Positions 2,429 through 46,023 of a stretch of DNA of 64,000 nucleotides are shown here, piece by piece (positions within the stretch are counted from its first letter, which is position 1; each line of letters begins with the position of its first letter). A program made the position numbers and the translations under genes. Source of the DNA: a virus; IMG/VR virus record IMGVR_UViG_3300031673_000012, positions 1-64,000 of that record. One strand, given 5' to 3'. The notes beneath the pieces are model-generated. The model saw only the letters and a program-made list of their open reading frames with translations, had not been told where the DNA came from and did no database searches.

Positions 2429-2614
2429 CACCCACATAGCTCGAACACTACACCATGAAACTTATATCTTGCAAGTAATATCAAAAGGTATATTCAAAGA
2501 GCAAGTTTTATTAAATTCTAGCAACTTTTAACATATCAATAATGAACTAGTTCTTTTGCATTTCAAATGCACTAGAACTATTCATGGGAATAAGTACTTA
2601 ATAGATAATCTATA

Positions 2615-2899
2615 TCATAATTCATTAAAATCATGAGTTACAGTTTCAATAGAAGGGCAAAAATCAAATTCATATATCTCACTAGTTTCTTCTATACATT
2701 CACATATCCCATTTTCAATATCTGCTGTATTAAGATTACCACAGAAAATTACATTATCTAATTTTAGAGCTTCTATTGAAAGGAATAATATATTTCCATT
2801 CCTTTCATCCGACGTATATCCGATTTCATCCAAACAATTAGCCAATATAATGGCTTCTGTATTTGTTTTACAAGTGATTTTAAAAGCTGGTGTTTTCAT
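2615..2899 (-). CDS. hypothetical acidic protein
   Basis: 94 aa ORF. Confidence 0.7.
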   Translation of the reverse strand: MKTPAFKITCKTNTEAIILANCLDEIGYTSDERNGNILFLSIEALKLDNVIFCGNLNTADIENGICECIEETSEIYEFDFCPSIETVTHDFNEL

Positions 2900-3042
2900 T
2901 GTGAGTGGGTTTGTTTATAATAATTTTCAAAAGAAATCTTACCTCTTACATAAGCACTCATCGCACTATTAATAGGTCTCTTATTACGATTATATTTTTT
3001 AGCACCTTTAGTTCTACCTGAACCTTCTTTCTTTGCAGCCAT
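2896..3042 (-). CDS. small basic hypothetical protein (MAAKKEGSGRTKGAKKYNRNKRP...)
   Basis: 48 aa ORF read manually; its TGA overlaps the ATG of the next gene. Confidence 0.7.
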   Translation of the reverse strand: MAAKKEGSGRTKGAKKYNRNKRPINSAMSAYVRGKISFENYYKQTHSQ

Positions 3043-3049
3043 TATTAAA

Positions 3050-3281
3050 CTATTTATTAATTAGTGAAAATGCCCACAAATTGTTTTCAGTAAGATGACA
3101 ATAACTATACAATCCATATTTTCAATGGGATTGATATTCTTTTATCATCTCTAACCCAAGTAGTTATTTTGCCGTAAACTTTCCACCTACGTGGAGTTCC
3201 ATCAGCATTTTTTGCATTCATTTCATAAAGAATGTCACCATGCTTGAGTTGTTTTGCTTCTTCAATTGTTATTGGTTTCAT
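3050..3281 (-). pseudogene. hypothetical phage protein with an apparent +1 frameshift at AAAA 3119-3122
   Basis: MKPITIEEAK...RWKVYGKITTWVRD...IPLK. Removing one A continues YGLYSYCHLTENNLWAFSLINK* to 3050, ending 7 nt before the next start. Confidence 0.5.
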
Positions 3282-3282
3282 A

Positions 3283-3606: not shown

Positions 3607-3612
3607 TACTTA

Positions 3613-3801: not shown

Positions 3802-3813
3802 AGTTTTAAGTGT

Positions 3814-4286: not shown

Positions 4287-5042
4287 TTAGTTTAAAGCTG
4301 CAGTTCCATTTCCTTTACTTCCTATTCCCTTATTAATTGCCATACTCCTACCATCACGATATCCAAGAGATTCCCCAACTTGTGCACTTAATATTGTCCT
4401 AGCCCTTCCATTTTTTAAATTTGGAAAAAAGTGAGTTACTGCATCATATAATTTGATATCATTAGCTAATACTAAGGCGTTAATTTGCTTTGATTCCCCC
4501 ATAGCTCGAACTTTAGCTTCTTTTAACTGAATATCAATTCCATGGCAAGCACCCATAAGATAAGCTCTCCTAAAAGCATTTCGTTTTTCACCATAATATT
4601 TACCTTCACTATCCCAAGCTTTTATTTCAAGTCTTCTTAACCTATTATCTAATTGATCTGCCAGAAATTTAACTACTATAACATTATCCTTAGTACCAAT
4701 TAAATTCACATACATATTAAACTTATTATTAGTATCGCGAAATCTACTAAAGATAACATCACAAAGATTATGTTTAGCAAGAACATCATATAATCTATAA
4801 ATCCATTTACCCTCATTCTTCTTAGCATAAACATCTCTATAAATCGCTCTTCCTATTTTTTGTTCCCTATCTGGATCATAAGCAGAAATATCTGCCATTT
4901 CCAAATTGTACTTTAAAAGTAAGGTTTGAACTTTCTCTGCAGCATTAGCAGCTTCTTTAAGAGACCCAATTACTTCAGCCCCCTTTTGAAGGCTAAGGAG
5001 TTTTTGAACCTTCTCAATAATTGATTTTGTTTGTTCTGTCAT
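4287..5042 (-). CDS. DUF2786-domain protein
   Basis: N-terminal IIEKVQKLLSL...EAANAAEKVQTLLLKYNL; C-terminal RNAFRRAYLMG and GYRDG. Confidence 0.8.
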   Translation of the reverse strand: MTEQTKSIIEKVQKLLSLQKGAEVIGSLKEAANAAEKVQTLLLKYNLEMADISAYDPDREQKIGRAIYRDVYAKKNEGKWIYRLYDVLAKHNLCDVIFSRFRDTNNKFNMYVNLIGTKDNVIVVKFLADQLDNRLRRLEIKAWDSEGKYYGEKRNAFRRAYLMGACHGIDIQLKEAKVRAMGESKQINALVLANDIKLYDAVTHFFPNLKNGRARTILSAQVGESLGYRDGRSMAINKGIGSKGNGTAALN

Positions 5043-5045: not shown

Positions 5046-5381
5046 TTAATCTTTATCATTTTCAAGATCATATTCTTCACCCCAATATGTATCCTCCAAA
5101 TAATTAGGTATCTTTTTTTCTAGATATCTTTGTAGTTCCTTTTCCGTTACTCCTCGTTTTTTATTACCATTAGCTCGAGGTTGTTGAAATACATAAACCC
5201 ATGTTTCAGAATCAAAATCATAAAACATGGGTTGCCCTGGATCAGGACTTGGTGGAATTTGTGTTGAAGTACTCGGAATTGGGTTTTTATTATAAGTTAA
5301 ACCAATCCAAAGTCCTAACAGTAAACTTATAATTACACCAATCAATATTTTTAAACCTATCCCTACTTTCTTCATAATCAA
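5046..5381 (-). CDS. hypothetical membrane protein
   Basis: N-terminal TM helix followed by a Pro-rich linker. Confidence 0.7.
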   Translation of the reverse strand: MIMKKVGIGLKILIGVIISLLLGLWIGLTYNKNPIPSTSTQIPPSPDPGQPMFYDFDSETWVYVFQQPRANGNKKRGVTEKELQRYLEKKIPNYLEDTYWGEEYDLENDKD

Positions 5382-8791: not shown

Positions 8792-9421
8792 TTACTTTTT
8801 AATCACTTTCGGAGCTGTTATATCAATTTCTTTAGCGACAGCTCGACGGAATTTTTCTTCCTCATCTTCATCATAATCATTTGGATCCGTATCCAAATCA
8901 TTTTCGTCACAAAGATCAGATAATTCCTCAAAATCCATTTCAAGAAGATCCTCCCAGGTATACTTATCATCTTTCTCTTCTCCCGATTCTTTTTTCTCAG
9001 ACTCCTTCTCTTCTTTAGGAATTTCTACTTCAATTTCTTCAGCAACATCCTTTCTGAATTCCATTACCTCATCCTTATCCTCTTTATCATAATCCTTTGG
9101 ATCAGTATCCAAATCATTATCATCACAGAGTACCTTTAAATCCTTATACTCCATTTCAAGAAGATCTTTCCAAGTATAATTCTCTTCACTTGAATCCAAA
9201 GGCAATTCTGATTGAGAAGCTTCCTTTTCAGATTTAGGATTCTTTGCCTTGGATTTAATTTTTGATTCTGCAAGTTCATCCAATTTCATGAACTCCTTTA
9301 AATCTTCATCAAGCCCATCAGGAGTAATAATCTTCATAAAGGCCATATCACCATCATCGAATTTGGCAAGAATATAATTCTCCCCTAATTCAAGCGTTCT
9401 AACAATTGTTTTTCCTTCCAT
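8792..9421 (-). CDS. very acidic protein with two ~50 aa internal repeats
   Basis: YTWxDLLEMxxxxLxxLCDxNDLDTDPxDYD...FRxxVAxEI occurs twice. Confidence 0.85.
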   Translation of the reverse strand: MEGKTIVRTLELGENYILAKFDDGDMAFMKIITPDGLDEDLKEFMKLDELAESKIKSKAKNPKSEKEASQSELPLDSSEENYTWKDLLEMEYKDLKVLCDDNDLDTDPKDYDKEDKDEVMEFRKDVAEEIEVEIPKEEKESEKKESGEEKDDKYTWEDLLEMDFEELSDLCDENDLDTDPNDYDEDEEEKFRRAVAKEIDITAPKVIKK

Positions 9422-9766: not shown

Positions 9767-10642
9767 TTAAGTAACCCTATGGGCCTTTGTAAAACCCGGT
9801 ATACCCATTCCAGTCTGAAAATCAAATACATTATGATCATATAATTTACTATCTCTTCCAGCAAACCAGCATACTTCTGGATGGGCTAAAGTTGGTTTTA
9901 TACGTATAGATTCAATATAATTATCACCCTCATTAAACCCTATTTCAGATTTTTCCAAAAATCCTCTTGCTTTAAACTCTTTTATAACCTTATCTTCATC
10001 TATTGGGTTAGCTCGAAGGACATCACAATGCTTTTTAATCCTATGTTTCCATTTTTCATAAATAAACATAGCTACCTGAGCAGTATCATATAATCCCAGA
10101 TCATAATATTCTTTTAAAACCCTAACTATATTACAGATATGTCGGATATCTCTAGGCCAATCATAATGCTTTTCAAATTCATGTAACCCTTCTACAGGTT
10201 CTGAAAAAGCCCAGTGATTATCTCTATAATATTTTAACCTTGTAATAAATAATACTGGTTGATCATTCAATATCTCCCAAACAGCAGTTTCAGTAACTTT
10301 CGGTAATCTTTTTAATTGTTTCATTTTTTTTCGTTCTGTATTTCTATAAATCTGTCTTTGATGTTGGGTCTTATATTTAGATGGATAATTATATTTAGCT
10401 GTATGATGTTTATGCCTTTTCTTTTTATTTATAAAATCCCTAAGACCATATTTCATAGCCTCCTTCCAATTAATTACATCATAATATTTATTATAATATC
10501 TCTCCTTAAATTCTTCAGCCTGTTGTTTATTATCAAGATGTTTACGAACAAGAACTGGCTTATGAAAATTTCGTAAATCTACTAAATACCATTTCCATTT
10601 TTTAACCTTAAACCATTCGCCAAATAATTTATCCCGTGGCAT
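9767..10642 (-). CDS. hypothetical protein with KYxYP motif
   Basis: 291 aa; KYNYPSKY...YRNTERK. Confidence 0.8.
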   Translation of the reverse strand: MPRDKLFGEWFKVKKWKWYLVDLRNFHKPVLVRKHLDNKQQAEEFKERYYNKYYDVINWKEAMKYGLRDFINKKKRHKHHTAKYNYPSKYKTQHQRQIYRNTERKKMKQLKRLPKVTETAVWEILNDQPVLFITRLKYYRDNHWAFSEPVEGLHEFEKHYDWPRDIRHICNIVRVLKEYYDLGLYDTAQVAMFIYEKWKHRIKKHCDVLRANPIDEDKVIKEFKARGFLEKSEIGFNEGDNYIESIRIKPTLAHPEVCWFAGRDSKLYDHNVFDFQTGMGIPGFTKAHRVT

Positions 10643-10643: not shown

Positions 10644-10829
10644 TCATTCTACTACTTCTCCCAATCCTTGGGATACTATATAATCAGCAGCCATATCAGC
10701 AGCCATTCTCATAGAATAGCAACTAGTAATAAAACTAATAATCTCTGAATCAGTCAATACCAATTCTATGTAACCATAGTCCTTATTCCATAATTCCTTA
10801 AATTCTTTTAATTTCTCTTCCATCCTCAT
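10644..10829 (-). CDS. hypothetical protein
   Basis: 61 aa ORF, coupled to neighbours. Confidence 0.65.
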   Translation of the reverse strand: MRMEEKLKEFKELWNKDYGYIELVLTDSEIISFITSCYSMRMAADMAADYIVSQGLGEVVE

Positions 10830-11392
10830 TCTATTTTTATTTTATGTAACTTACGAGATTTATTATACCATATCCCAATTGATTTCTCAGAAGCATCAGG
10901 GAATTGAGTCATTACCTTCTTTATTACTTCTTCTTTTGATAAACCTTTTTGTTGTGATTCAAAAGTAAAAGCTTTCTTAGTCCCTTTAAATATCCCATCA
11001 TTAGTTCTTTCCCTTTTCTTTTTCTTCCTTTTCACAATAGTACGAACCCTTTTTCTCTTGATAATATTTCCTTCTGCATCATTTTCAGCTATATACCCCA
11101 ATCTTAATGTAGGATGTAATAATACAGTAAAATCCTCACCTCTAGATTCCATAACTTGTCTTATCAACTCTTCTTGATAAGTATCAAACGCATCCAATAG
11201 CTCGAAATGAATAGTATCAGGAAAATGATTTCTTAACCAATTAACCAACTTAGGAATAGTCCCTTCTATAACCTTATCAAATTCCATCCCCCTAATCACA
11301 CATTCCCGTTTTATATCCTTATATTTTAAATTCCCTATAAATTTATCAGCATCAGGAATATTCATTTCATATTTTCTCTTTTTCCTACTCAT
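10826..11392 (-). CDS. putative DNA-binding protein (C-terminal HTH-like, basic linker)
   Basis: GLSKEEVIKKVMTQFPDASEKSIGIWYNK; Lys/Arg tract. Confidence 0.65.
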   Translation of the reverse strand: MSRKKRKYEMNIPDADKFIGNLKYKDIKRECVIRGMEFDKVIEGTIPKLVNWLRNHFPDTIHFELLDAFDTYQEELIRQVMESRGEDFTVLLHPTLRLGYIAENDAEGNIIKRKRVRTIVKRKKKKRERTNDGIFKGTKKAFTFESQQKGLSKEEVIKKVMTQFPDASEKSIGIWYNKSRKLHKIKIE

Positions 11393-11689: not shown

Positions 11690-12700
11690 TTACTTCTCGG
11701 GATAAAAAAATTCATAGTCTTCAGCACGTTTCTCTCCAGGTTGGGGTTTTTCTTTTCGATTTTTTACAATCTGTTTATCCCTATCAAATAATGCGTTATC
11801 TAAATATGTCCTAGATTTATGAATATTTTCAAGTTCCTTATAATTTAATGACTTAGTAATCAAAACTCTAAATTCTGGCCAAAATCTTTGCCCAGTTTTA
11901 CAATTCTTAACAGAATTTAAAAAATATCCAGCAATTAATCTTGCAAAATTTTCAGCGTTAGCTCGATCAGTAAAAATAAATAATCCTATTTCTGTTATCT
12001 CATTAATTATACTAGTTTTTTTTCTAACCTTAATAATTTTATAATCATTCTCTAAATGTTCAGAAATTAATGGTAAATAAATCCTACGATATTTACCCGA
12101 ATAGGAATATTTTTCCACTACTTTCAATACAGAAAATTGAGGTAATGTTGTTATATTTCTTAAGTGTTTTACATTTCTAACTTTATTCCTTCTTTTAAAA
12201 GCCGAAGGTTCTTGGATTTCCAAAGGTAAAATCCTAAAATTATTCCATCGATCAAAATCCATTATTAAATTATAGAAATCTCTGGTAGATTCATTATCTA
12301 TCTCTCTTAATTTTTCTATTTGATTAATGATAAATTTATTCCTTCTACTAGCAATCCCATAAGAAGGATCCTCCATTTGTTTAACAGATTGAGATATATT
12401 TTTTCTTTCTAAAATTGTTAAAGTCAAATATTCCTTAAAAGCAAAAGAAATATATAAATCTTCTGGAAAAAATATACCATATTTCTCAAAATGATTTGTA
12501 AATATTTCTAAAAATTTCCTAGCCCTTTTCTGAATCTCTAAATATTTAAAATGAGCTTTACTCATTATCTCCCCTGCCTCCCAAGTCGATTTACTATGGC
12601 CAAGAGATAAAGATATTGCTGTTTTTTCATCATCATTCAATATGTTCCATGCTTCCTGATTTATTCTATCTTTCGCCATCTCCATATGAAATTTTAGCAT
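11690..12700 (-). CDS. hypothetical protein with sigma-region-4-like N-terminal HTH (start probably 12679 or 12685)
   Basis: LNDDEKTAISLSLGHSKSTWEAGEIM resembles a sigma-4 HTH; overlaps the NusG-like gene. Confidence 0.6.
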   Translation of the reverse strand: MLKFHMEMAKDRINQEAWNILNDDEKTAISLSLGHSKSTWEAGEIMSKAHFKYLEIQKRARKFLEIFTNHFEKYGIFFPEDLYISFAFKEYLTLTILERKNISQSVKQMEDPSYGIASRRNKFIINQIEKLREIDNESTRDFYNLIMDFDRWNNFRILPLEIQEPSAFKRRNKVRNVKHLRNITTLPQFSVLKVVEKYSYSGKYRRIYLPLISEHLENDYKIIKVRKKTSIINEITEIGLFIFTDRANAENFARLIAGYFLNSVKNCKTGQRFWPEFRVLITKSLNYKELENIHKSRTYLDNALFDRDKQIVKNRKEKPQPGEKRAEDYEFFYPEK

Positions 12701-13442
12701 AAATCCTATCTAAACTTCTCTTACCTTGTTCATTTATTTCATCCAAACTTTTTTCTTTACAAGATTTATCAAAATCAGCATAAACAGTATAAAATATATT
12801 TTCAAAACTCACTATCGCTGTAGTTATCATTGTTTCAAGTAATAATCTAACTTTTACCTGTTTTTTCTGTTTATTAACATTAACTACTTCAGCTGTCATT
12901 CCATCATAAGGATATCCCTGAAGAGTTAAAAAATCCCCTAACTGTAATTTTTCTATTAACTCATCTGAAAATACAGACATATTTTCTGCAGTTTTTAATA
13001 ATTCAACAATCTCTTCTTCAGTGGCTGTAGCAATTCTTACTTTTTTCCTTGATTTCTTTAAAATCTTAATCCCATTTTTATTAGTTTCTTCTTTAATTTT
13101 TGTATCCTTATTATCCATTCTAAGATTTGGTTTTCTAGAAAGAGTCTTAGCTGGATCAAGTACCCAACCATAAATTGCTGGAATCTCTTCTCTTAATTTT
13201 TTAAGAAATTCTATATCACAAGCTTTATTATAAGGAATCTGAAAAAACCCATAGTTAAATAATAATGGAACATATTCATATATATTTCTATTCTTAAATT
13301 GTTTCTTTAATATCCTTATAGTAGGAATATAAACTCTAATAGAACCAAATCCTTTTAATAACAAATCACTTTCTACCCTATGAATATGGTCTCTACTTAT
13401 ATAAGCCACTACCCAAATATAATCATACTTCTGTGGGGACAT
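12666..13442 (-). CDS. nusG: NusG/RfaH/UpxY-family transcription elongation factor
   Basis: NGN domain (WVVAY...VYIPT...PLLFNYGFF) plus KOW (LQLGDFLTLQGYPYDGMTAEVVNVNKQKKQVKV). Confidence 0.85.
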   Translation of the reverse strand: MSPQKYDYIWVVAYISRDHIHRVESDLLLKGFGSIRVYIPTIRILKKQFKNRNIYEYVPLLFNYGFFQIPYNKACDIEFLKKLREEIPAIYGWVLDPAKTLSRKPNLRMDNKDTKIKEETNKNGIKILKKSRKKVRIATATEEEIVELLKTAENMSVFSDELIEKLQLGDFLTLQGYPYDGMTAEVVNVNKQKKQVKVRLLLETMITTAIVSFENIFYTVYADFDKSCKEKSLDEINEQGKRSLDRIYAKISYGDGER

Positions 13443-14026: not shown

Positions 14027-15853
14027 TTAGGCCAAACTAGTTATTCCATCTAAATAATCTATTAGGATAATGTTTGCATTAGTAGGATTAAATTCAGCTC
14101 TATGTGTTACTAGATATAAACATTTAGATTGGGCTTTATCCTGAATTAAATCAGTTATTATTTCAATATTATCCTTATCAAGAGATTCAAATATCTCATC
14201 CATAACTAATAAAGAACATTCCTTTGTATCTGAAACGACATCATGAATAGCAAAAGCAGAAACAATATCTACCGTTTGTTGTTGACCCCCAGACAGATCA
14301 TCATAGGGAACTGGCTCCTTATTTTTAAACACATAAGTTTCCAAATCTTTATTAGCTGATTTCATATCCATGAAGAAAAACACTTGAAAATCAATGAATT
14401 TGGTATAAAATTCCAATCGTTCATTTACATCATCAAGCATTCGATTAAAGATAAAAACTTTTAAACCAGCATTAGATAATGGATCGCGAATTAACCATTC
14501 ATAAGTTTTTACATCTCGTTGAATCCTTTTTAAATTAACTGCTTTAACTCTAAGCTGAATTTTTAAGTCCCTTAGCTCGACACTTAATTTTTCAATATTA
14601 TTTTCAAGCTTTCTTTCCTTGATTTCCTGTATTCTATTTTTATGTATTTCGACCTTATCATTAAGTTCTTCGATACTCTTTAAAATAACGTCTAGTTCTT
14701 TAATTGCACTTTTACAAGAAGTAATATTTTCTAGCAATTTATTTGCACTAGCAATATTCTTTTCTACCTCTTTTATTTGCCTCTTTAATGCACCAATAGT
14801 AGCAATTTTATTTTCATAGGTTTTTCTTAATTTTATCAAATCCAATTTAATTCTTGAAATTTGTTCTTCCTTTTCCTTACTACTATAAAAGCGCCCACAT
14901 TTATCACATTTTTCTGGTAAATATTTTAAATCTTCTTCAGAACTTTTTATATCTAATTTTATTTTATCTTTTTCTTCTCTATATCGATCAATTTCACTTT
15001 CCAATTTAGTTAAATTTTTTTCCAAAGCTAAGATTTCCTTATCTGATAAACAATCGTGTTCAAATATCTCCAATTCCAATTCAAATTCATGTTTTCTTAA
15101 ATCAGCTTCATCATTATTATCAAATATCTGCCTTAGCTCGATCCTCAAAGAAGTAATAATTTCCCTTTCTATTTTAATTTCCCTTTTCTTATTATTCTCA
15201 AAATTTTCAACCATTAATTTTTGAGACCCCAATTCTGATTCTTTACCCCTAACTTTTTCTTCAATTAAACTATAAGCGCCCCCAGTTTTTAATTCTTCTA
15301 TTCGAAATTCTTGAAGTTTTCCATCAGCAAGCTTTTTCGCTTTAGAAATATAAGCAATTTCGAAAGCTTCATCAAATATTTTCTTTTTATTAGGACCAGT
15401 TTCAGAGATAATTCTTTTAAGTTTTTGTCCAAATATAATACTGTTTTTAAATAAATCATAACTATATCCAATTATCTGTTCAATCCTCTTTTGTATATCC
15501 CTCTTATCCCCTTCTTCAGGATTTTCATTATCATTAATATAAAGTAATAAAGAATTTTTAAGCTTAGAAAAATTTTCATGCCTTATAATTTTAATTACAG
15601 TTGAATCCACATATATCATTTGCTTAACTCGAGTACCGCGATAGCTCGAAGGACGAATATGAGACCAAGGTTCTACTGATCCAGATAAAAGTTTTCCGTA
15701 TATACACCAAACCAAGGCATTGATAAATTTAGTTTTACCATAACCATTAGGAGCTTGGATTATATTCAATCCATGTAATCCCCAATCAAATTTCTCATTA
15801 GAAATAGAAGCAAACCCCTCTATTTCCATTGGCCCAAAATTAATCATATCCAA
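14027..15853 (-). CDS. sbcC: SbcC/Rad50-like ATPase (T4 gp46-like)
   Basis: Walker A APNGYGKT, Zn hook CDKC, signature LSGGQ, Walker B MDEIFESLD, H-loop VTH. Confidence 0.93.
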   Translation of the reverse strand: MDMINFGPMEIEGFASISNEKFDWGLHGLNIIQAPNGYGKTKFINALVWCIYGKLLSGSVEPWSHIRPSSYRGTRVKQMIYVDSTVIKIIRHENFSKLKNSLLLYINDNENPEEGDKRDIQKRIEQIIGYSYDLFKNSIIFGQKLKRIISETGPNKKKIFDEAFEIAYISKAKKLADGKLQEFRIEELKTGGAYSLIEEKVRGKESELGSQKLMVENFENNKKREIKIEREIITSLRIELRQIFDNNDEADLRKHEFELELEIFEHDCLSDKEILALEKNLTKLESEIDRYREEKDKIKLDIKSSEEDLKYLPEKCDKCGRFYSSKEKEEQISRIKLDLIKLRKTYENKIATIGALKRQIKEVEKNIASANKLLENITSCKSAIKELDVILKSIEELNDKVEIHKNRIQEIKERKLENNIEKLSVELRDLKIQLRVKAVNLKRIQRDVKTYEWLIRDPLSNAGLKVFIFNRMLDDVNERLEFYTKFIDFQVFFFMDMKSANKDLETYVFKNKEPVPYDDLSGGQQQTVDIVSAFAIHDVVSDTKECSLLVMDEIFESLDKDNIEIITDLIQDKAQSKCLYLVTHRAEFNPTNANIILIDYLDGITSLA

Positions 15854-17366: not shown

Positions 17367-18270
17367 GTTTTAAATTTTTAAAGGTTTTTATAAATTGGGG
17401 TTTTAGAAATGAATTAATTTCATAGGTACTACATATTTTTTTTAATTTATCTTCATCAAATTTCTCAACAGGATTAATCCAAGGAATCTTTTCTCCCATT
17501 AAAAATTTTCTGTAAAAAAATTTTAAATCTATTAATTGTTTATTTAATTTCCAAATTCCCTTAAGTTTTTCTTTATCTATTTTCCCAAACTTATCTCCAG
17601 ACTTAAGAAAATTTTTAACACTACCATATTTATTTAATAAATCTAAAGCCCTTTTTGGACCTATTCCTGGGTACCCACTTATCTTATCTGATTTATCCCC
17701 AGTGATAGCCAGATAATCTACTGTTTGTTCAACAGTATACCCCACCAATTTAGGTAAAGTAGTATACCCAATCTCTTTTCCCTTTCCGGTATTATAGATT
17801 GTAATTTCCCCATGCAAACCCGGTTCAGGATATGATATAAGTTGGTTAAAATCTTTGTCACCCGAAACTATTATTACATCCCATTCCTTTTGAGAATATC
17901 TACGGGTTATCATAGCTATAAGATCATCGGCTTCCATATTTTTTTGATAAGCGATTAATAATCCCAGAGCCATAAAAATTTCTCTACCCATATCTTTTTG
18001 TCTAAAAAAGTCTTCCACATCAAATCCAAGTTTCTTATCCCTTTCTTTATAAGAAGGCAAAAGCCCTATTCTAAAAAGGCTTCTACCACCGTCAAAAACT
18101 ACGACAACTTTATCTGGACTTAATCGTCTAATCAAACTTTCTGTTATATAAGGCATACCATAAATTACCCCAGTCTTAGCTCCATCCAATGTTTGTAAAT
18201 TCATAAATTTATAATAAGCTCGATACGCTAAATGATTACCATCGAATATGACTAACCTATTATTCATCAT
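17359..18270 (-). CDS. 5'-3' exonuclease / flap endonuclease (stand-alone PolI N-terminal type)
   Basis: FDGNHLAYR, VFDG, EADD, SGDKDF, GDKSDKISGYPGIGPKRA. Confidence 0.93.
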   Translation of the reverse strand: MMNNRLVIFDGNHLAYRAYYKFMNLQTLDGAKTGVIYGMPYITESLIRRLSPDKVVVVFDGGRSLFRIGLLPSYKERDKKLGFDVEDFFRQKDMGREIFMALGLLIAYQKNMEADDLIAMITRRYSQKEWDVIIVSGDKDFNQLISYPEPGLHGEITIYNTGKGKEIGYTTLPKLVGYTVEQTVDYLAITGDKSDKISGYPGIGPKRALDLLNKYGSVKNFLKSGDKFGKIDKEKLKGIWKLNKQLIDLKFFYRKFLMGEKIPWINPVEKFDEDKLKKICSTYEINSFLKPQFIKTFKNLKHA

Positions 18271-29183: not shown

Positions 29184-30603
29184 CTTCTAAATCTTTATTT
29201 CTTAATTTTCTTCTTGAACCTTCATAACTATTATCTCTCGTATCTGAACCATCAGAAGGGTATGATTTATTATACTCTTCTAATTCTTTTTTCGATAACG
29301 GTCTTAATAATTGTATTACTGGATCAATCTTAAAAATTACTTTACCATGTGGTGGTCCATCTCTTTGATCTATAATAGTTAATCTTTGATACCCATTTGT
29401 TTCTTCTCTTTCAGATCTATTCAATCCATATAAAGCTTGAACATGTCTAGTGATATCAATAGCTCCAGCAACATCAGTAGATTCATAAATCTTTCCTTCC
29501 CTTTGTTTAGCAGCTTCTCTAGTAACATGTTGAGCAGTCCAAACTAAATCAATATTTTTTTCCAAAGCCAAATTCCCCATATCAATATAAGCTTCTGATA
29601 TCCTTTCATGAAGAGAATCTTTACCAGATATACAACCCATTTTAGAAACATAATCTATAACAAGAATATCAACTTGAAAACCATATTCCCGATACAAATA
29701 ATCTATATAATTCCCAATATCTGTAGCTGTAGTTACAAGTGAAGGCATTCTTTTAACTATAATCTCACCACCATGCCTTTTACTTTTACGTAATGATTCC
29801 CTTACTACCTGATCTACATCACCATCTTCATCTAATAACTCCTTTTTAGTTACACCGGCTACACATTGTTCAATCCTCATTAAAATTTCATCCTCCCCAT
29901 TATCCAAATCTATAATCAGAACATTCTTTTTATACCTTTGCATATATCTTAAAGATATATTAATAAGTACCCCTGTTTTAAATTTCTTAGCTCGATCAAG
30001 AACAACCAATATACTCCCTTTAGAATATCCTCCAGCATTTGTTAACCTATTTAATTGTTCCCATGGCATAGTAATAATAGAACCTTTTTCTTTTCTTTTA
30101 ACTTGCCTTAATCTTACATCACGAACTAAAAATGTTCCCTTTTCTTCTATCTTCTGAATACGAGGGGCAATAGCTTTTTGAACCTTTCTAGAAAATATAT
30201 CATATTGTTCATAATCCAATAAATTAATATTTTCTATCTCATGTTTTAAATCTACGTATTGTGCAAATTTTTCTGTACTAGCTAAGATTTCGTCACCATC
30301 TTTAATTATACCTTTAAATAAATCAGAAGCAATAGATAATATTTCTTTTCTATCATTATCAGTAAGATTATTAACAAATTCTCGATTATCAAATGTTTTA
30401 TGTAATTCTTCAAATAAAATAGTTTTTCCAGGAATTGTTTTTCGCCTTTTATAATAAGACTTTAAAGTAAAAGCTATTACAGCATGTTCAACTAAAGTAA
30501 AATAAGAATCATCATATAATTCTATTACCTTATAACCGTTTTTATCCTGAACTGTATATTTTAATAAATCTAATTGAAAATCAGTAGTGAATTTGAATTT
30601 CAT
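29173..30603 (-). CDS. dnaB: DnaB-like replicative helicase
   Basis: Degenerate Walker A DRAKKFKT, VIDY, WTAQH, DQRDG; adjacent to primase; ATG at 30603 (the track starts at GTG 30609). Confidence 0.88.
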   Translation of the reverse strand: MKFKFTTDFQLDLLKYTVQDKNGYKVIELYDDSYFTLVEHAVIAFTLKSYYKRRKTIPGKTILFEELHKTFDNREFVNNLTDNDRKEILSIASDLFKGIIKDGDEILASTEKFAQYVDLKHEIENINLLDYEQYDIFSRKVQKAIAPRIQKIEEKGTFLVRDVRLRQVKRKEKGSIITMPWEQLNRLTNAGGYSKGSILVVLDRAKKFKTGVLINISLRYMQRYKKNVLIIDLDNGEDEILMRIEQCVAGVTKKELLDEDGDVDQVVRESLRKSKRHGGEIIVKRMPSLVTTATDIGNYIDYLYREYGFQVDILVIDYVSKMGCISGKDSLHERISEAYIDMGNLALEKNIDLVWTAQHVTREAAKQREGKIYESTDVAGAIDITRHVQALYGLNRSEREETNGYQRLTIIDQRDGPPHGKVIFKIDPVIQLLRPLSKKELEEYNKSYPSDGSDTRDNSYEGSRRKLRNKDLEDAE

Positions 30604-31402: not shown

Positions 31403-32651
31403 CACTTATTGTAACTAAATGTGTAGCCGGTGTTCCCGCAACTACAAACCAATAAAGGGTCTTATTAGTTTTAAGTCCTATTATACTACTTTCAAAAGCA
31501 TTTGTACCTTCATTTACCCCAGATGCAGCTAATTCTATATTAACTGATCCCCCAACTGTAACATCCTTTTTAAATCCTAATATTACTTTATCAGTTGCGA
31601 TTGTATATTGAGAAGCTAAAACTATTCTAAGCCAAGCTATCTCACAATCACTGGGTACTATAGCAGAAAGATCAAGATAACCAGTACTACTTGCAAAACT
31701 ACCAAAATCAGACATATCAAAATCTGATATTATAGGTGTATCTCTCCAATATAATCTTTTACCTAAAGGAGTTGCCCAATCCCCCTCACCATTTAAAAAC
31801 TCTGAAGCTATATTAGAAAGTTTTGGTAATAACCCATGTCTTGTATCAGTAGCATCAAGATCGGTATTATCATCAGGAACTCCCCAATCATCAAGTTTAG
31901 TTGCTTGAAGAATGATTATATCATCTTCATTATCTTTTGCGATTTGATCCAGAGCATCTAATGAATCAGAAATAGATTGAAGATTAGTTATAAAATTTTG
32001 TTCAGAAAATTGACGATCCCCAATAGCTCCATCTGCAGGAATTGTTCCTACTGCACCATCTACAGTTTCATCCAAAAATTTAACAGCAGTACCACTACCC
32101 CAAAGTTTAGCAGCTATATTCTGATCACCATAGTTTTGGGATACATTAGCCTTATAATAAATTAAATCAGCAAAGTCATTAGCCCCCGGAACTTCTTCAA
32201 TATATCCTATTGGAACTTGTTTTGTAGGATAATCAAGGGTAGGTATTCCTCCACCATCACTTCCAGCTTTAACCCCATAAGTAGCATTATTAGCCCCAGG
32301 TACTGAAGGATAATAAGCATGTTCAAAATAAAGTATATGCCATTTAATACCAGTAGGAGCAGATACAACAATTGTAAAATCTATATCACCATCTTCAGTA
32401 ATAATCTGACCTTGAGTACTAATAAGAATCCCGCGGTTAGCTTCAATAACAGGAGTAGGATAAGTTTTATCATATTTAGCTATACCCCCACCAGATACCC
32501 TACAATAAACATTATTACCTGATTGAGCTTGATATTCAGTCATCGCATTAAATCCATAATACCTACCAGGGTTTAATATCCCTATCAAGGCATCTCTTAG
32601 CTCGAAAGAGAGAATATCTGCTTGATAAGTTGTGTATTGACGTTGACTCAT
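31371..32651 (-). CDS. baseplate-attached tail fibre protein
   Basis: Last gene of the baseplate operon; fibre-type HGLLPKLS...FLNGEGDWATP motif. Confidence 0.7.
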   Translation of the reverse strand: MSQRQYTTYQADILSFELRDALIGILNPGRYYGFNAMTEYQAQSGNNVYCRVSGGGIAKYDKTYPTPVIEANRGILISTQGQIITEDGDIDFTIVVSAPTGIKWHILYFEHAYYPSVPGANNATYGVKAGSDGGGIPTLDYPTKQVPIGYIEEVPGANDFADLIYYKANVSQNYGDQNIAAKLWGSGTAVKFLDETVDGAVGTIPADGAIGDRQFSEQNFITNLQSISDSLDALDQIAKDNEDDIIILQATKLDDWGVPDDNTDLDATDTRHGLLPKLSNIASEFLNGEGDWATPLGKRLYWRDTPIISDFDMSDFGSFASSTGYLDLSAIVPSDCEIAWLRIVLASQYTIATDKVILGFKKDVTVGGSVNIELAASGVNEGTNAFESSIIGLKTNKTLYWFVVAGTPATHLVTISVTVLAWQTTV

Positions 32652-35963: not shown

Positions 35964-38900
35964 CTATGGTGTTCCATAACTTAATTTCCCAGTACTAGGA
36001 TTATAATAAACTATATATGTTTCAGTAGTTTTAGCAGGTAGATATCCAGCACTACCATTACCAAAATATATATTACCTCTTATCCCAGAACCATTAGGAG
36101 ACCCACCATATAAATAAAGATTACCACCATCATTATTACCTATACCATAACCTGTACCTCCCCTAACAGTAAGATTATATCCTATAGGATGCCCACTATA
36201 TCCCATAGACCCATAAACTTGTCCATTTATTGCAGCCCATGATATCCAACCATCACTAAGTAAATTTACAGGATTTAAAATACCTGCTATGATAACTGAA
36301 GCATTAGCATTACCTAAATAAATTCCTTGATTCCCTGATATTGTACCCAATACAATAGACCCATCAGCCCCTGACATAATAGTCATATCTGGACTTGCTA
36401 CAGGTGTATATATGTTATTAGTATATAACCTTGACGCATAAAAATATCCATTATAATTTAATCTTGTTGTAGCTGTTGTATCTGTTGTACCTGTATAAAA
36501 TTCTCCACCTGATTGTTTTGACCCATAAGCCTGATACCTATCAGTAACCCAATCGAGTAAAGTAGAATCAACTGGAGTAGTACCTCCTCCACCTGCAGGT
36601 ACAGCCCAATTACCATCAGCTCGAAGAAAATAAGTAACACCTAAATTACTTGACCCGGGAACTAACCCTTTCAGATTACTGGTAGTTGAAAATAGATTAA
36701 GTAATGAAGTAGCTTGAGTAGCATTTAAAGCTTCTACATCACCAAAACCTACAGTAATACGGCCTAGAAATGAAGCTGTGGCTACCTGAGCCATTTTAAC
36801 AAGGGTTACTTTATTTGTTCCTATTGCAACAACTCCAGAACCATTAATTGTTATATCACCTGAAACTGTAGTGAAACCATAAGTTGTAGCAGCCGTAGCT
36901 AATAAAATTTGTCCTGCTGTTTTACCCGAAATAGTATGAAATGAGCTATCCAATACATGAGGTAATGCAGTTTGAGCATCTCCTAATAATCCTCCCAAAC
37001 CCACTACTGATATTTCATCTGAACCACCATCTTGGTGAGAAGTAGCATGTGCATCCGGGGTTCCTGCTGTAGGTATATCATACCATCCTTTTATTCCAGA
37101 ACTATTAGTACCATATAATTTACTATTACCTGGAGCATCAGCATCATTTACAAAATTAACATAATTACTGGATTCTACTAAAGAATATCTAAAAGTATAA
37201 ACAGTTCCACCTCCAACACCTAAATCAATAGTAGATCCATTTATCCTTGCATACGCACTTGTAGTAGTAGTCCATATATCACCATTAACTGGAGATGCCG
37301 GAGCAGCTCCATGTGGTAATCTTAATCCAGCATAAGACGTAGTAGATGCTGGTGTTATTACTCTATGACCAAAAGTTATACCATCTCCTACAGTAAATTC
37401 ATTAATTAGATTCGTTTTAAAAATATAATCTGTTCCTACCCACTCTGAATAAAGTTCCATATTACCCTCTAAAAGATACCTATCATTAATACCTAATCTA
37501 AATTGATAATTTACATTAGCAGAATATAAAGTTACATAATTTCCTATTAAAAGATTAAAAGAACCCGTAGTAAAATTATGCCCTGCAGTATAACCTATAA
37601 ATAAATTATATGATCCTGTTGATTGTCCATCTATTCCAAAACCTGCTTGAGCTCCTAAAAATGTATTAATTTCTCCAGTAGCATAATATCCACTACAATA
37701 ACCAATTGCTGTTAAACTAACAGATGTAGTTATTTTATGTCCTGCTTGATAACCTACTGCTACATTAGAATGACCTGTAGATATATTATATAAGGATTGA
37801 AATCCTATTCCTACATTACTAAGTGCATTATTAGATAAATTTGTACCTTTACCTGCCCCACCCCCTATATATACATTATAATAACCACTTGAATTATACC
37901 GTCCTGCCTCTGATCCTATTGCTACATTACCTGCTCCAGTAATTGTATATGAATCAGAACCAGCCATAGAAAATGCACCCACTACTGTATTACTTGTTCC
38001 CGTAGAATGATACCAACCTGCAGAATACCCTATTAAAACATTAAGATCACCCGTAATAGAAGCTGATACTATTCCTGTTCCTGCACCATATCCTACAAAT
38101 ACATTATATTCACCAATTGAATAATAACCAGCATCAACACCTATAGCTACAGAATATTCCCCATCAATTAAACTTCTTAAAGAATTATTCCCTATGGCTA
38201 TATTACCCTCTCCACTATTCAAACTTACTAAACTATTGACTCCTATACCTAAATTATTATTACCTGTAGTTATAGCATATAAAGCACTAGTACCTATTCC
38301 TATATTAGCTGCTCCCGTACTTGTTGTCTCAACACCAAACCCAGCTGCATAACCTATAAACACATTATTAGCTCCTACAATATGATGTCCAGCTGCATAA
38401 CCTATATAAACTATAGTTCCATAATTAGCATCCATACCTGCAGCATACCCTATTATTACACTATCTGATACATTATTAGAGCTTCTAAGGGTATTATACC
38501 CTATCACTACATTACGACTCCCCTCAGAAATATTAATAAATGATTCTGCCCCTATTATTATATTTGATGATCCACTTGTTATATTATTTCCAGCTAAATA
38601 CCCAATTAAAATATTATCCAATCCTGTTATAGAATCATTACCTGCAGATTCAGCTATTCTTATTACCCTATTAATAGAACTATAAAATATTATTTTAGTT
38701 GAATCTTCTCTTATATCAAGAGCATCAGGGAAACTAATATAATTATCCTTATGAAATATACCTTCTATTTCAACTCCATAATCAAGAGTATATTCTTCAA
38801 TAATATCAACCAATATTTTACCACTAGTAGCTATATTATCACCTAAAGTAAATGGACTTAAAACTATACCATTTTTTTGCCAATACTGAGTAGTAGTAAA

Positions 38901-40304: not shown

Positions 40305-40933
40305 TAATGTAATACTCTTTCATTTTCAATATAAGGTTGATCTGTTTCTGATACATCTTCTGGTGCAGGATTACTCGGATCTAATGGACCAGCAAAACCA
40401 GAAATTGGGTCTATCAAATTATGTAACCTATAATGAGCTAAAAAATCATTTAACTTTTGTTCTATCTTATTTAACATTTCTGTTAGCTCGATCACTTTTA
40501 CTAACCCCACATTCTCCCCATGATTTATTATGATCTGATTATTTATATCATCAACAACAATTGTTTGACCTTTAGGAGATCTAAAACCATAAATTTTAGT
40601 TGAAGTAAATTCTTCAGGCTTCTCCCCCTTAGCTCGATGCCCAAAATTCCAAATAGGAAACCTTGTATCGCCATGCTCAAATTCAATCCATACTATTTCT
40701 CCCTTAAGAGGTAATAATTGAATCCCATAATTATTCCCACCCCATTGAGTTTTAGGATAAGCCCATGATGGGTGTAATTTATTTTTTGTAACAGATGGAA
40801 TTTTAACTTGAATTCTTCCTAAACCTATTGGATCATCATTATCAATCACATAACCCCGATAAGAAGAATAGTATTTTCCTATTGATTCAAAACCATAATA
40901 AAGTATATTATCAAAAACTTCTCGTAAGGTCAT
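40304..40933 (-). CDS. baseplate spike (gpV/gp5/VgrG OB-fold)
   Basis: YRGYVIDNDDPIGLGRIQVKIP...PLKGEIVWIEFEHGD. Confidence 0.92.
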   Translation of the reverse strand: MTLREVFDNILYYGFESIGKYYSSYRGYVIDNDDPIGLGRIQVKIPSVTKNKLHPSWAYPKTQWGGNNYGIQLLPLKGEIVWIEFEHGDTRFPIWNFGHRAKGEKPEEFTSTKIYGFRSPKGQTIVVDDINNQIIINHGENVGLVKVIELTEMLNKIEQKLNDFLAHYRLHNLIDPISGFAGPLDPSNPAPEDVSETDQPYIENERVLH

Positions 40934-42804: not shown

Positions 42805-43087
42805 ATAAAGACTGGATTAATGGAATACTTGGAATTAGAATAATTTCCCCTACAGGTAAATCAAATATATCTTCTATATTATCATTAACATCAGCTATCA
42901 TAAACCATAAAGAAGAATAACCATAATATTTTCTAGCAATAAAATGAAGTGTATCACTATATGAGATAGTATGATAAATATCTGATACTGATTGTTTATA
43001 AAAAATATTATTTCTAAATAAGGTCAATTCCCCAGAACCAAAATCCACCAAATATCCCCTATCATATAACCCTTCTGAAATTACCAT
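42788..43087 (-). CDS. LysM / gpX-like baseplate protein
   Basis: YHTISYSDTLHFIARKYYG...WFMIADVN...LPVGEIILIP. Confidence 0.88.
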   Translation of the reverse strand: MVISEGLYDRGYLVDFGSGELTLFRNNIFYKQSVSDIYHTISYSDTLHFIARKYYGYSSLWFMIADVNDNIEDIFDLPVGEIILIPSIPLIQSLYGGAR

Positions 43088-43096
43088 AGCTTTATA

Positions 43097-43942
43097 TTAT
43101 TTACTAGTAGGTGAAGCATTCCCAACATATTCTATTTCAACTTTAGTTAAATTATTTCTAGTAATTCTTCCTAATGTTATCGTTTGATATGCCTGTATTG
43201 GTAACATATATGTAGATTCTAATTGACCTTGTAAATTAATATTACCCTTATTAAAATTAGACAATCTATAAGGTGCAGATAATACTATAAATTCATGATC
43301 AGAGAATAATACATTTTCTTTTCCCCACATAAGTTTTACTCTATGTGGATCACCTGTATAACCGTCTGCCTTAGTAAGAGATTCTATTCTTCTACAATTT
43401 TCAATAACTTGTCTCCTCCCCCAATCAAAAGCATACCAATCTATTTCGAATTCCAGTTTATCTTGACTCCCAGTATAATGATATATAGGATTATTTCTAC
43501 CCATAGGTTGGATAGTAGCAAAAGCAGACTCACAATTATATTCTAATTCCTTAGGAATAAAAGGTAACCTAATAACTTCATATTGATTATCTTTTCCTTT
43601 AGCATCCAAATCAATAATAGATATATAATCCCTTAATTCTAAACCCTTATTAGGAACAAATTTACTATGACCAGAAACATCTGGTGAATTTTCACCTAAT
43701 ACTGGGATTTTTCTTTTTTCCTCGAGTTCTTTAGAATATGGGGTAATTATACTATGATCCCTAGTATCTGGAGAAAAAGTTCCAAATATTTTTATATCTG
43801 GATCTTCACCTACATTTTTAACCCTACGAAAAAATACTATAGCTCTACGAGCATCCATACTCCATTGTATTACCTGACTAACTGGTTTAGGAGGAATAAA
43901 AGTATGGTAATTTGTAAATAAAGGATTAGTAATTATAGCCAT
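43097..43942 (-). CDS. tail tube initiator / CIS-tube-like protein
   Basis: PKELEY...GRNNPIYHYTGS; follows the TMP. Confidence 0.75.
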   Translation of the reverse strand: MAIITNPLFTNYHTFIPPKPVSQVIQWSMDARRAIVFFRRVKNVGEDPDIKIFGTFSPDTRDHSIITPYSKELEEKRKIPVLGENSPDVSGHSKFVPNKGLELRDYISIIDLDAKGKDNQYEVIRLPFIPKELEYNCESAFATIQPMGRNNPIYHYTGSQDKLEFEIDWYAFDWGRRQVIENCRRIESLTKADGYTGDPHRVKLMWGKENVLFSDHEFIVLSAPYRLSNFNKGNINLQGQLESTYMLPIQAYQTITLGRITRNNLTKVEIEYVGNASPTSK

Positions 43943-46023
43943 TATTGTAATCTACTTAATGAATCCATCATATTACGTTCAATCATTTTCTGAACAGTAA
44001 GTTCATTATCAATATAAATATTTATTGGTTGAGTCTGTTTAATTGTTAACATTTTTTCCAATTGATTAGCTAACTGGGATAAAACTTCTGTACTAACCCC
44101 CCTATTAGTTTCACCAACCCTTGTTTGTCCCACCATAGTTACCGGAGGAGCATTCAAATCTTGGAATTGAATCATGTGACCAATCTGTGAATATTTTGTT
44201 TCTGACCTTATCTGGGCTCTATTAGCTTCTTCTAATTTTTTTGTGTTTTGGTTAGTGGCTTCTTTATTACTTCTAATGGCATTTGTTAAAGCCCCAATTA
44301 ATCCAGGTAATACAAATGCTAAAGTCATACCTAAAGGTCCACCCAAGACTCCTAAAAATTTTCCTAATACCCCCCCAACCATAGCTCGAGTTCCAGTTCC
44401 AGTAGCCATTTTAGATAACCCAAACATAGTAGCACTTGCTCCAGCTCCTCTAGCATATCCAGCCCCTCTAGCTGCTTGAGCTGCAGCACTTGCTCCTTTA
44501 TAAGCTTTATACCCACCACCAGGAGCCCTAACATAATATCCTCCAGTTCCCCTAAATAATCTTTGATTAAACCCAAACATACCCCCAGCTCCTGCTACTG
44601 AAGCCACCCCAGCTCCTCTAGCCGCAACTGTATATCTCATAGCTGCAGCCGTCATAGAATTATATGCAGTATTTGCAGCTGCAGCCATTGTAGTTGCAGA
44701 AGTCCCAGTTTGTAAGTGCATTACTCTTAACCCCAAAACTACTGCTCGATATGCAAATGTTGCCGTTTTTAAAACCAAAAATCCTGTTATCCCTGCAGCT
44801 AAAAATCCCCCTAAAAGTTTACTATCAAAAATCTTTTCTAATATCGCAAAAGTTTTTGTTAACATTTTTAATAATACCGTAAATACAGGAGTCATTTTTT
44901 CAGTAAATGAAACCCACATAGCTTGCCATGCAGACCCAGTTTTATATATCCATCCTTGAAGTGTACTCATCATATCTCCCATAATCCTAGCAGAATGGCC
45001 AGCAGACTTAGTAGTGATCTCCCCAGAAAATCTTTCAAATTCTTGTAAATTTCTTAAAAATAAAGAACCTGCCCTTTTTCCCCTAACTCCAAATACTGAT
45101 TGTAAAATTGCTTGTTTTTCAACATTCATCCCTTCTCCAAAATGTTCATCTATAGCTACACCCATTTTCTTCATGACTTCAGTCATGGTTAATAAATTCC
45201 CAGTTTGATCTGTAACATCTGTTACATTCATTCCTAATTCTGCAAGAGCTTTTCTACTAGGTCCAGAAGCAAATGAAGAAAATGCTCTAGCCAAATATCT
45301 CATAGAGTTTTCCATAGCAACCCCTGCCATAGAACCTTGCATCCCTGCATTACCTAATGCCATTACCATAGCAGTAGATTCAGCAAGTGTAATATTAAGG
45401 TCCATCGCAGTAGCACCCCCATATTTAAGAGCCTCCCCTAAGTCAAATAAATTAGTATTAGCTCGAGTTACTGCATAAGATAATAAGTCAGCAACATCAT
45501 TAGTATATTGAAACCCGATTCTAAACTGCTTCATAACATTAGTCATGATATCAGCAGCTCCACCTTTTCCTCCTAATAATGATTTAGTAGCACCAGCAAG
45601 ATTAACAGCACCTTCAATATTCTTTTCAGTTTCCGTAGCTGACATCCCAGCCATTGCCATAAATCTCATACCCTCAGCAATATCCTGAGGATAAAACATT
45701 GTCTCTCTACCTAACCTTTTAGATATATTTGTTAATCTTTTTTGTTCTTCTGAAGTAGCATCAGTGATTGATTTAACAAACTCCATTTCATAACTAAATT
45801 CGGCAGCTTTTTTAACCATCCTACCCATACCACGTAAAGCCATGGCTCCTGCAAAAGCTAACCCAGCATACATATTACGTTGTTGCTTAAGCTGAGCTTC
45901 TTGCATTCTTATAAACTCCTGTTCTGTTTGAACAGCAGAAGTCCTAATTCTAGCCGCAGGACCTGAAAATTGATCTCTAAGGAACATGGTTACACCAATT
46001 CCCAGAGTACTTCCACCCATCAT
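43942..46023 (-). CDS. tape measure protein (TP901-type core)
   Basis: EGMRFMAMAG, ANTNLFDLGEALKY, GMQGSMAG; Ala/Gly-rich with TM segments. Confidence 0.92.
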   Translation of the reverse strand: MMGGSTLGIGVTMFLRDQFSGPAARIRTSAVQTEQEFIRMQEAQLKQQRNMYAGLAFAGAMALRGMGRMVKKAAEFSYEMEFVKSITDATSEEQKRLTNISKRLGRETMFYPQDIAEGMRFMAMAGMSATETEKNIEGAVNLAGATKSLLGGKGGAADIMTNVMKQFRIGFQYTNDVADLLSYAVTRANTNLFDLGEALKYGGATAMDLNITLAESTAMVMALGNAGMQGSMAGVAMENSMRYLARAFSSFASGPSRKALAELGMNVTDVTDQTGNLLTMTEVMKKMGVAIDEHFGEGMNVEKQAILQSVFGVRGKRAGSLFLRNLQEFERFSGEITTKSAGHSARIMGDMMSTLQGWIYKTGSAWQAMWVSFTEKMTPVFTVLLKMLTKTFAILEKIFDSKLLGGFLAAGITGFLVLKTATFAYRAVVLGLRVMHLQTGTSATTMAAAANTAYNSMTAAAMRYTVAARGAGVASVAGAGGMFGFNQRLFRGTGGYYVRAPGGGYKAYKGASAAAQAARGAGYARGAGASATMFGLSKMATGTGTRAMVGGVLGKFLGVLGGPLGMTLAFVLPGLIGALTNAIRSNKEATNQNTKKLEEANRAQIRSETKYSQIGHMIQFQDLNAPPVTMVGQTRVGETNRGVSTEVLSQLANQLEKMLTIKQTQPINIYIDNELTVQKMIERNMMDSLSRLQ

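Follow-up and report, generated by a model that had tools for sequence, protein, structure and literature searches.

The question raised by this locus is why a single eight-letter word should be repeated many times on one strand of a phage genome, mostly inside genes, and what machine might read it there. The window analyzed comprised the first 64 kb (64,000 nucleotides) of the single-contig virus record IMGVR_UViG_3300031673_000012 (here G000; 85,418 bp). The word is written TCGAGCTA on the coding strand and TAGCTCGA on the + strand of the window, and is accompanied by copies of its 7-mer core, AGCTCGA.

Count, strand and statistics of the word

By exact match TAGCTCGA was found 19 times on the + strand of the window and 0 times on the − strand; dinucleotide-preserving shuffles of the window gave a mean of 0.46 and a maximum of 3. 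The 7-mer was found 23 times, all 23 on the + strand, and TCGAGCT was found there 0 times. An initial annotation, made from the letters of the window, had listed the 19 octamers, four further 7-mers and a polarity of 23:0, and every one of these was exact (Table 1). The near-matches TGGCTCGA that it placed at 47317 and 52866 are likewise real, with two others at 84568 and 84592, beyond the window. Over the whole of G000 the counts (+ : −) were 21:1 for the octamer and 27:1 for the 7-mer, and the sense (non-template) strand carried every copy except one or two per genome.

When all 6- to 9-mers of G000 were scanned without bias under a dinucleotide model, the octamer and its overlapping sub-words came first for over-representation, with 21 octamers against 0.3–0.5 expected. 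Synonymous codons were then shuffled within genes 1000 times; the shuffled sequences averaged 3.1 copies and never had more than 7, compared with the 21 observed. This control retains the two intergenic copies and a CGA pool inflated by the word itself. When only the dense half of G000 was shuffled, 18 copies were observed against 0.66 expected (z = 22). CGA is a minor codon in this genome (90 of 1141 Arg codons), and CGA-GCT encodes 18 of the 65 Arg-Ala dipeptides. The 19 octamers of the window are distributed over three frames, 11 as nnT-CGA-GCT (Arg-Ala), 6 as nTC-GAG-CTA (x-Glu-Leu) and 1 as TCG-AGC-TA (Ser-Ser), with 1 intergenic, a tally that the initial annotation had given correctly. 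Twenty-five of the 27 7-mers of G000 lie within open reading frames (ORFs), at relative positions from 0.04 to 0.91; the word is accommodated in genes at the price of using rare codons.

The extended consensus on the coding strand, derived from 98 distinct CGAGCTA sites in twelve related records, is c-n-T-CGAGCTA-W-K-G-S (81 of the sites have T at −1, 41 have C at −3 and 66 have G at +9, while W at +7, K at +8 and S at +10 complete the pattern), and no conservation was seen further out than about 12 positions in the 98-site logo. The extension S-W-TAGCTCGA initially proposed was roughly right, and too short. The site is an asymmetric word of about 12 positions. From the codon shuffles, the rank in the unbiased k-mer scan, the occurrence in three frames and the conservation in relatives described below, we conclude that the word is a positively selected, strand-specific signal at the DNA level and not a peptide motif, as had been suggested at the outset.

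Density gradient, iteron cluster and relatives

The genes of G000 are nearly all on the − strand, in an array that runs from about 77.3 kb down to position 1 and continues past the contig ends as far as 84.0 kb; a block of small genes on the + strand occupies 77354–83661. A GC-rich, non-coding iteron cluster is located at 84434–84755 (L038 8434–8755), beyond the window, and at about 36.7–37.1 kb in the relative G006. Counted per 10 kb away from the cluster and against transcription, the copies numbered 4, 8, 2, 2, 4, 0, 0 and 1 in G000 and 7, 3, 1, 1, 1, 0, 0 and 0 in G006. The gradient is one-sided: from its maximum at the cluster, density drops across some 45 kb of the miscellaneous, replication and tail modules, with one copy per 2.3 kb in the dense part of G000. 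The same preference for replication and miscellaneous modules was observed in G007, and tail genes bear the word in G000 and hardly at all in G006 and G007.

Peptide contexts that would permit the word were realized in 18 of 51 cases at 0–46 kb and in 1 of 22 at 46–77 kb (Fisher p = 0.0075), and CGA outside the word made up 7.2% and 6.5% of Arg codons, respectively. Since contexts and CGA use are comparable, the empty head module reflects neither a lack of opportunity nor an avoidance of CGA. Genes on the opposite strand (18.6 kb over six records) contained no 7-mer in either orientation, so polarity set by transcription and polarity of the DNA itself are inseparable here.

Within the G000 cluster the word is fused to the repeats as TCGAGCTAaaGAGCTaTAGGGCC, accompanied by two GGCTCGA variants and three GGCCCTAWAGCT repeats; the G006 cluster has three full copies within 260 bp, with the word fused as TCGAGCTAatGAGCTaTAAGGCC. 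The word-less relatives G008 and G009 carry repeats of the TAGGGCC or AAGGCC type at the corresponding map position, which makes the repeats a family trait and the word an addition of one clade. A small gene with its own terminator (83996–84433) adjoins the G000 cluster. An origin, pac site or genome end may lie in this cluster region. Rfam matches at gathering score were absent from the whole of G000, window included, and from the cluster locus of G006. Five tandem AATCCT units were also noted in G000 at about 83840–83875 (L038 about 7840–7875), just after the terminator of the small gene beside the cluster, and similar ATCCTTAATCCCTG repeats were seen at 37.9–38.0 kb in G006.

Relatives were found by searches with the DNA polymerase and a NusG-like protein of G000. 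Contig 2 of G006 (L032–L036) is a complete, circularly assembled relative of 83,107 bp, binned in a 2.6-Mb metagenome-assembled genome labelled "uncultured archaeon". A gene of G000 matches Amidase_2, with a 68% orthologue in G006, and a peptidoglycan amidase in the phage makes the archaeal binning probably wrong. Over whole records the ratio of sense to reversed octamers was 21:1 in G000, 13:1 in G006, 13:0 in G007, 6:0 in G001, 6:0 in G002 and 10:0 in G003, or 69:2 for these six together, and 21:0 in six more fragments (L001, 1 copy; L005, 2; L016, 3; L039, 3; L040, 4; L042, 8). Complete genomes have about 13 to 21 copies. The 8 word-rich rows grouped into one clade (support 96/90) in a 28-row tree of the NusG-like protein, and the remaining 20 rows had 0 or 1 copy each. 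The word was acquired a single time, within one clade of soil myoviruses.

Core genes of the closest relatives without the word (G005, G004, G008 and the complete G009) are 40–70% identical to those of G000. A codon-shuffle z scan for a substitute polar word of 5 to 8 letters gave none in G005, G008 or G009, and no clade-specific gene was found in the stretch common with G005. Genes shared by G000 and G006 and unseen in any word-less relative encode only proteins of 75–94 amino acids.

In codon alignments of G000 genes with word-bearing relatives the exact octamer was kept in 26 of 70 aligned site comparisons (6/18, 6/17, 4/11, 5/13 and 5/11 for the individual comparisons). The background for any octamer in the same alignments was 4.9–9.3%, so that the positional conservation of the word is five- to six-fold higher. 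At aligned sites of word-less relatives the octamer was found in 0 of 47, and those genomes use AGG or AGA for the same arginine at such places; at the place of the 18905 copy, for example, G005 has AGG-GCT and G004 has CCGAGCTA. Some sites thus stay fixed and the majority turn over, with the number per genome maintained.

Very strong one-strand words were also seen in the distant relatives L053, L066, L067, L049 and L057, for example GAGGACGA, with 22–23 copies per 11–21 kb. Words of this type give the impression of acidic codons repeated within one gene or a small number of genes.

Table 1. Copies of the word and associated features in the window, with the state of aligned places in related records where compared.
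Feature	Position	Strand	Context
Terminator-like hairpin, 9-bp stem and T run	2396..2428	-	Just downstream (sense) of the intergenic copy; read from sequence
TAGCTCGA	2437..2444	+	Intergenic; in sense direction 8 nt upstream of terminator-like hairpin; same arrangement in G006 at 33925
TAGCTCGA	4502..4509	+	Gene 4287-5042 (DUF2786/DUF7168), Arg-Ala
TAGCTCGA	5171..5178	+	Gene 5046-5381; TCGAGCTA at aligned place in G003 and G002
AGCTCGA 7-mer	8840..8846	+	Full word at aligned place in G003
TAGCTCGA	10009..10016	+	Gene 9767-10642; position not conserved
TAGCTCGA	11198..11205	+	Gene 10826-11392, x-Glu-Leu
TAGCTCGA	11959..11966	+	Gene 11690-12700; word at aligned place in G002 and G003
NusG/Spt5-family protein (NGN, insertion of ~60 residues, KOW)	12666..13442	-	Fold match, KOW profile hits
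TAGCTCGA	14573..14580	+	SbcC-like gene; conserved in G002 and G003
TAGCTCGA	15134..15141	+	SbcC-like gene; not conserved
TAGCTCGA	15642..15649	+	SbcC-like gene, Ser-Ser-Tyr; conserved in G001 and G002
AGCTCGA 7-mer	18217..18223	+	5'-3' exonuclease gene
TAGCTCGA	18404..18411	+	UvsX-like gene; not conserved
TAGCTCGA	18905..18912	+	UvsX-like gene; conserved in G001, G002 and G003
TAGCTCGA	21677..21684	+	Family A DNA polymerase gene; conserved in G001 and G003
AGCTCGA 7-mer	23939..23945	+	Exact match
TAGCTCGA	26008..26015	+	SF2 helicase gene; conserved in G001
TAGCTCGA	29988..29995	+	DnaB-like helicase gene
TAGCTCGA	32598..32605	+	Gene 31371-32651
AGCTCGA 7-mer	36618..36624	+	Tail fibre/spike-like gene (1446 aa)
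TAGCTCGA	40484..40491	+	Baseplate-hub-like gene
TAGCTCGA	40630..40637	+	Baseplate-hub-like gene; copy in G006 orthologue (71845) at about the same offset, compared by hand
TAGCTCGA	44382..44389	+	Tape-measure gene
TAGCTCGA	45459..45466	+	Tape-measure gene; last copy before 31-kb empty stretch (head module)

Candidate readers of the word

The statement of the initial annotation that the word is undescribed is consistent with the literature searched: the word itself matched 674 and 2,016 papers, and the matches among those listed were cloning-primer contexts. Four kinds of reader had been put forward: a NusG paralogue acting as on ops, a Chi-like recombination system, programmed nicks as in T5, and a primase, packaging or ejection signal. 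For the last group nothing specific was found for or against, and it has no specific support.

The best explanation, offered tentatively and by analogy, is a Chi-like site for a helicase-nuclease. A host enzyme of the AddAB/RecBCD type would enter a double-strand end at or beside the cluster, move against transcription and meet the word from its 3' side, whereupon the word would make it stop degrading and turn to recombination or protection; a site would be most important close to the point of entry and of no importance far from it. What we infer in this scheme is where the DNA end lies, which enzyme acts and that the word is read as DNA. According to PMC12315714, phage LLS has 23 Chi sites oriented 20:3, one per 1.86 kb and half of them within the genome's rightmost 22%, phage MD8 has Chi 32:0, and Chi is the commonest octamer of LLS and P1. 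The statistics of the word match those of such experimentally studied Chi-rich phages. The one-sided decay away from the cluster and the head module left empty despite permissive contexts were likewise counted in favor of a Chi-like site. The single origin of the word, with no clade-specific gene and no substitute word, is as expected of a reader encoded outside the phage. The information in its 3' flank (W-K-G-S) was also counted in favor, beside the flank dependence reported for E. coli Chi (excerpt of PMC5041463).

Several points weigh against a Chi-like site. In PMC12315714 the Chi-rich lambdoid phages are those without Rec modules, whereas this phage encodes UvsX, SbcCD, gp32-like and FEN proteins of its own; the Chi-like candidate of the initial annotation is the best statistical analogue, in a phage that has its own recombination genes. 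The polarity coincides with transcription, all but one or two copies per genome being on the sense strand, and no copy lies in the early-gene block beside the proposed point of entry. The Chi words described for AddAB are said to be shorter than the word found here. A length of 5 bp is cited for AddAB Chi in PMC2887965, where the Chi of Bacteroides fragilis AddAB was given as unknown in 2010; no later description of it was found in the literature searches made. In its 3' half the word is similar to the TAGGGCC/TAAGGCC iterons that the family shares at the cluster, a hint that the binder is instead encoded by the phage. The host is itself deduced from the upstream regions of the phage genes. 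The 7-mer was not enriched in the non-phage contigs of the G006 bin (251 copies over both strands); since no SusD family was found in that bin either, it is probably not the host.

It is possible, though doubtful, that the copies mark localized one-strand nicks like those of tf, T5 and phiKMV, made in mature DNA by a phage enzyme that cuts at the word or next to it. In phage tf a 9-mer consensus occurs in 14 copies, confined to the top strand, and every one of the 14 was shown to be nicked; 11 of them lie in the left half, and the positions are similar in three relatives (PMC3517423). The signature here is the same (an exact word on one strand, one copy per 2–4 kb, a skewed distribution and conserved positions), and phages of the tf/T5 type are lytic with their own DNA metabolism, like G000; by analogy the nick signature would fit about as well as that of Chi. 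The third candidate of the initial annotation stands as far as the signature goes. Against it, no nickase specific to the word-bearing clade was found (only the shared proteins of 75–94 amino acids, with about 50 of 108 ORFs scanned against family libraries), and the PDDEXK_15 nuclease of the phage is also present in word-less relatives.

We consider it unlikely that the word is a transcription-elongation signal on the non-template strand, ops-like and scattered in genes, read by the NusG-family paralogue of the phage and serving to load or reload an antitermination or pausing factor. The paralogue itself is real, as indicated by a fold search and by KOW profile matches. Foldseek with a model of the protein encoded at 12666–13442 (moderate quality, mean pLDDT 57.6, about 80 in the NGN part) gave 17 best matches, all of them NusG, Spt5 or RfaH chains (E 7e-6 to 2e-3); a profile of 23 homologues compared with solved structures gave five matches, all to KOW domains of Spt5 or NusG (E 0.02–0.3); and three distant homologues are labelled NusG by JGI. 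Pfam gave no match for this protein, and NusG (PF02357) had no match in the whole genome at E ≤ 0.001, which counts against this reading. The protein is conserved over a large family of phage contigs of about 75–85 kb (190 homologues, E ≤ 0.001).

Besides the presence of such a paralogue in the same genome, the location of nearly all copies on the non-template strand agrees with this reading, as does the informative length of about 12 nt, which is that of ops (excerpt of PMC11685472). Two intergenic copies, one in G000 and one in G006, lie 8–12 nt upstream of terminator-like hairpins, an arrangement that in both complete genomes keeps a NusG-dependent signal in consideration; the hairpin of G000 was not flagged by the terminator scan since its T run is shorter than 5. 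The remaining distribution argues otherwise. Copies inside ORFs stand at any relative position and not in operon leaders, the distance from a gap to the next copy is irregular (from 46 to upwards of 29,000 nt in G000, reaching about 34,500 in G006), the first gene of the array in G006 has no copy, eleven copies lie in a 19-kb stretch without gaps, and most terminators have no copy nearby. The paralogue is moreover conserved in all word-less relatives. The elemental pause consensus has a G near −10, and no G at −10/−11 or other elemental-pause pattern was seen in the 98-site logo; an overlap of ops with the pause is mentioned in the excerpt of PMC11685472. What remains of the first candidate of the initial annotation is the paralogue, by its fold, with the word outside operon leaders and the paralogue also in phages that lack the word. 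An ops-like signal present 13–21 times per genome would have to have been gained once through a changed DNA specificity of the NusG-family factor, a course of events to which we attach a low probability. An association of the word with operon leaders or terminators was also considered as such and rejected, with no regular spacing relative to gaps or to promoter-like sites and most terminators free of copies.

On an equally improbable reading the word is bound by a DNA-binding protein of the phage that has the iteron cluster (an origin, pac or regulatory site) as its primary target, and the dispersed copies serve as secondary sites or, like stoperators, as polar roadblocks. In the cluster the word is fused to the family-wide iterons (TCGAGCTAaaGAGCTaTAGGGCC and TCGAGCTAatGAGCTaTAAGGCC in the two complete word-bearing genomes, TAGGGCC in G008 and G009), the 3' flank of the dispersed copies (W-K-G-S) resembles TAAGGC, and word density is highest at the cluster. 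TAGGGCC is not polar in G009, however (24 vs 26), no binder was identified, the T4-type replication genes suggest a virulent phage, and no repressor or integrase was found in a partial scan covering about 50 of 108 ORFs.

That the word acts in messenger RNAs, as UCGAGCUA, in the form of a nuclease, RNA-binding-protein or antisense-RNA site, would agree with the sense orientation of the copies and is very improbable: there is no conserved structure or flank past about 12 nt and no Rfam family, and the distribution tracks distance from a DNA landmark and not gene class. That the word is a functionless by-product of codon, dipeptide or mutational bias is scarcely credible, being already contradicted by the codon shuffles (maximum of 7 against 21), the z of 22 in the dense half and the positional conservation, and further opposed by the rare CGA, the three frames, the intergenic copies and the absence of the word from sister phages of like composition, even if its single-substitution variant TGGAGCTA is likewise polar (13:0) and such variants can be accounted for by common codons. 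The probability left beyond these readings was assigned to something not thought of.

The phage, its host and comparison with known systems

Family searches identified a contractile-tailed phage (tail sheath, baseplate, tape measure, large terminase, portal and major head protein) with genes for replication and recombination (family A DNA polymerase, DnaB-like helicase, primase, UvsX-like recombinase, SbcC/SbcD-like nuclease, gp32-like protein, 5'-3' exonuclease/FEN and SF2 helicase). Also identified were the PDDEXK_15 nuclease, a thymidylate-synthase-fold enzyme, a dUTPase_2-fold enzyme and a C5 cytosine methyltransferase; these scans took in only about 50 of the 108 ORFs. No transfer RNA genes were found.

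A tetramer resembling a Shine-Dalgarno (SD) sequence was found upstream of 6 of 107 genes, and the upstream regions are A-rich. Scarce SD sequences and A-rich upstream regions are typical of Bacteroidota, and the host is probably Bacteroidota-like. Contigs with G000 DNA were present in six soil metagenome runs, and no RNA data set was listed as carrying it. No near-identical phage was found in the phage collection, a protein-level search of phage records returned distant gut phages only, the word was absent from the first 50 kb of MT121964, and a tblastn search with the amidase against plasmids, aimed at those of Bacteroidota, gave no match.

Some further features of the genome were noted. The C5 cytosine DNA methyltransferase gene (PF00145, E 1.3e-11) is the first gene of the long array, at 76283–77296 (−) of G000 (L068 10283–11296), and argues against full replacement of cytosine in the phage DNA. 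The thymidylate-synthase-fold and dUTPase_2-fold enzymes are encoded at 22821–23537 and 24631–25437 (−) of the window, adjoining the DNA polymerase gene, and may form a base-modification pathway. The only sizeable opposite-strand gene inside the long array (30752–31402, +) had no family match and is 52–75% identical in the relatives that cover that place. The gene at 11690–12700 was considered as "sigma-4-like" and rejected, with no match in Pfam or among solved structures. A hairpin with a stem of about 21 bp stands exactly at the contig end of G000 (85355–85418); G006 is contiguous across the matching place, so that this end probably reflects a break in the assembly and not the terminus of the genome.

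Strand-polar words belong to the small set of sequence signals from which one can tell which machines travel a phage genome, and from where. The gradient predicts a physical DNA end, origin or pac site at 83.7–84.8 kb of G000. Were the word Chi-like, it would be a candidate recombination hotspot of a soil host, probably a member of the Bacteroidota, and a phage with its own T4-type recombination genes would still be using a Chi strategy. If it marks nicks, the tf/T5 phenomenon would extend to myoviruses of another phylum, and if it is read by the NusG paralogue, a new use would have been found for the only universally conserved transcription factor.

Several known systems can be set beside the word. 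The stoperators of Cluster A mycobacteriophages are asymmetric, present in some tens of copies and oriented with transcription, as is the word; they are mostly intergenic and act with a cognate repressor in temperate phages, whereas here 25 of 27 copies are in genes and no repressor was found among the approximately 50 proteins scanned. The KOPS and SRS octamers that guide the DNA translocases FtsK and SpoIIIE (PMC3384302) are polar and over-represented, and KOPS invert at ori and dif, whereas the word keeps a single orientation and is on only about half of the genome. The ops and opsX elements of RfaH and Bacteroides UpxY (PMC11685472, PMC5995543) are asymmetric non-template elements of about 12 nt paired with a NusG paralogue, as here; ops is found once per operon leader at a consensus pause, and the word mostly in ORFs, 13–21 times per genome, without a pause consensus.

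The closest parallels are the nicked and the Chi-rich phages. The nicks of tf were demonstrated physically and the word here is known from sequence alone; the tf word keeps to one strand across two convergent transcription units, whereas strand and direction of transcription coincide in G000. Chi-rich phages use the known Chi of their host and lack recombination modules; the word is not G-rich, and its phage has UvsX/SbcCD/gp32-like genes. In the E. coli lambdoid phage LLS, in P1 and in P. aeruginosa MD8, as here, the site is the top octamer with a strong orientation bias, occurring about once per 2 kb, clustered to one part of the genome and inside genes. By this analogy the word appears to belong to the kind of signal known from Chi-rich or nicked phages.

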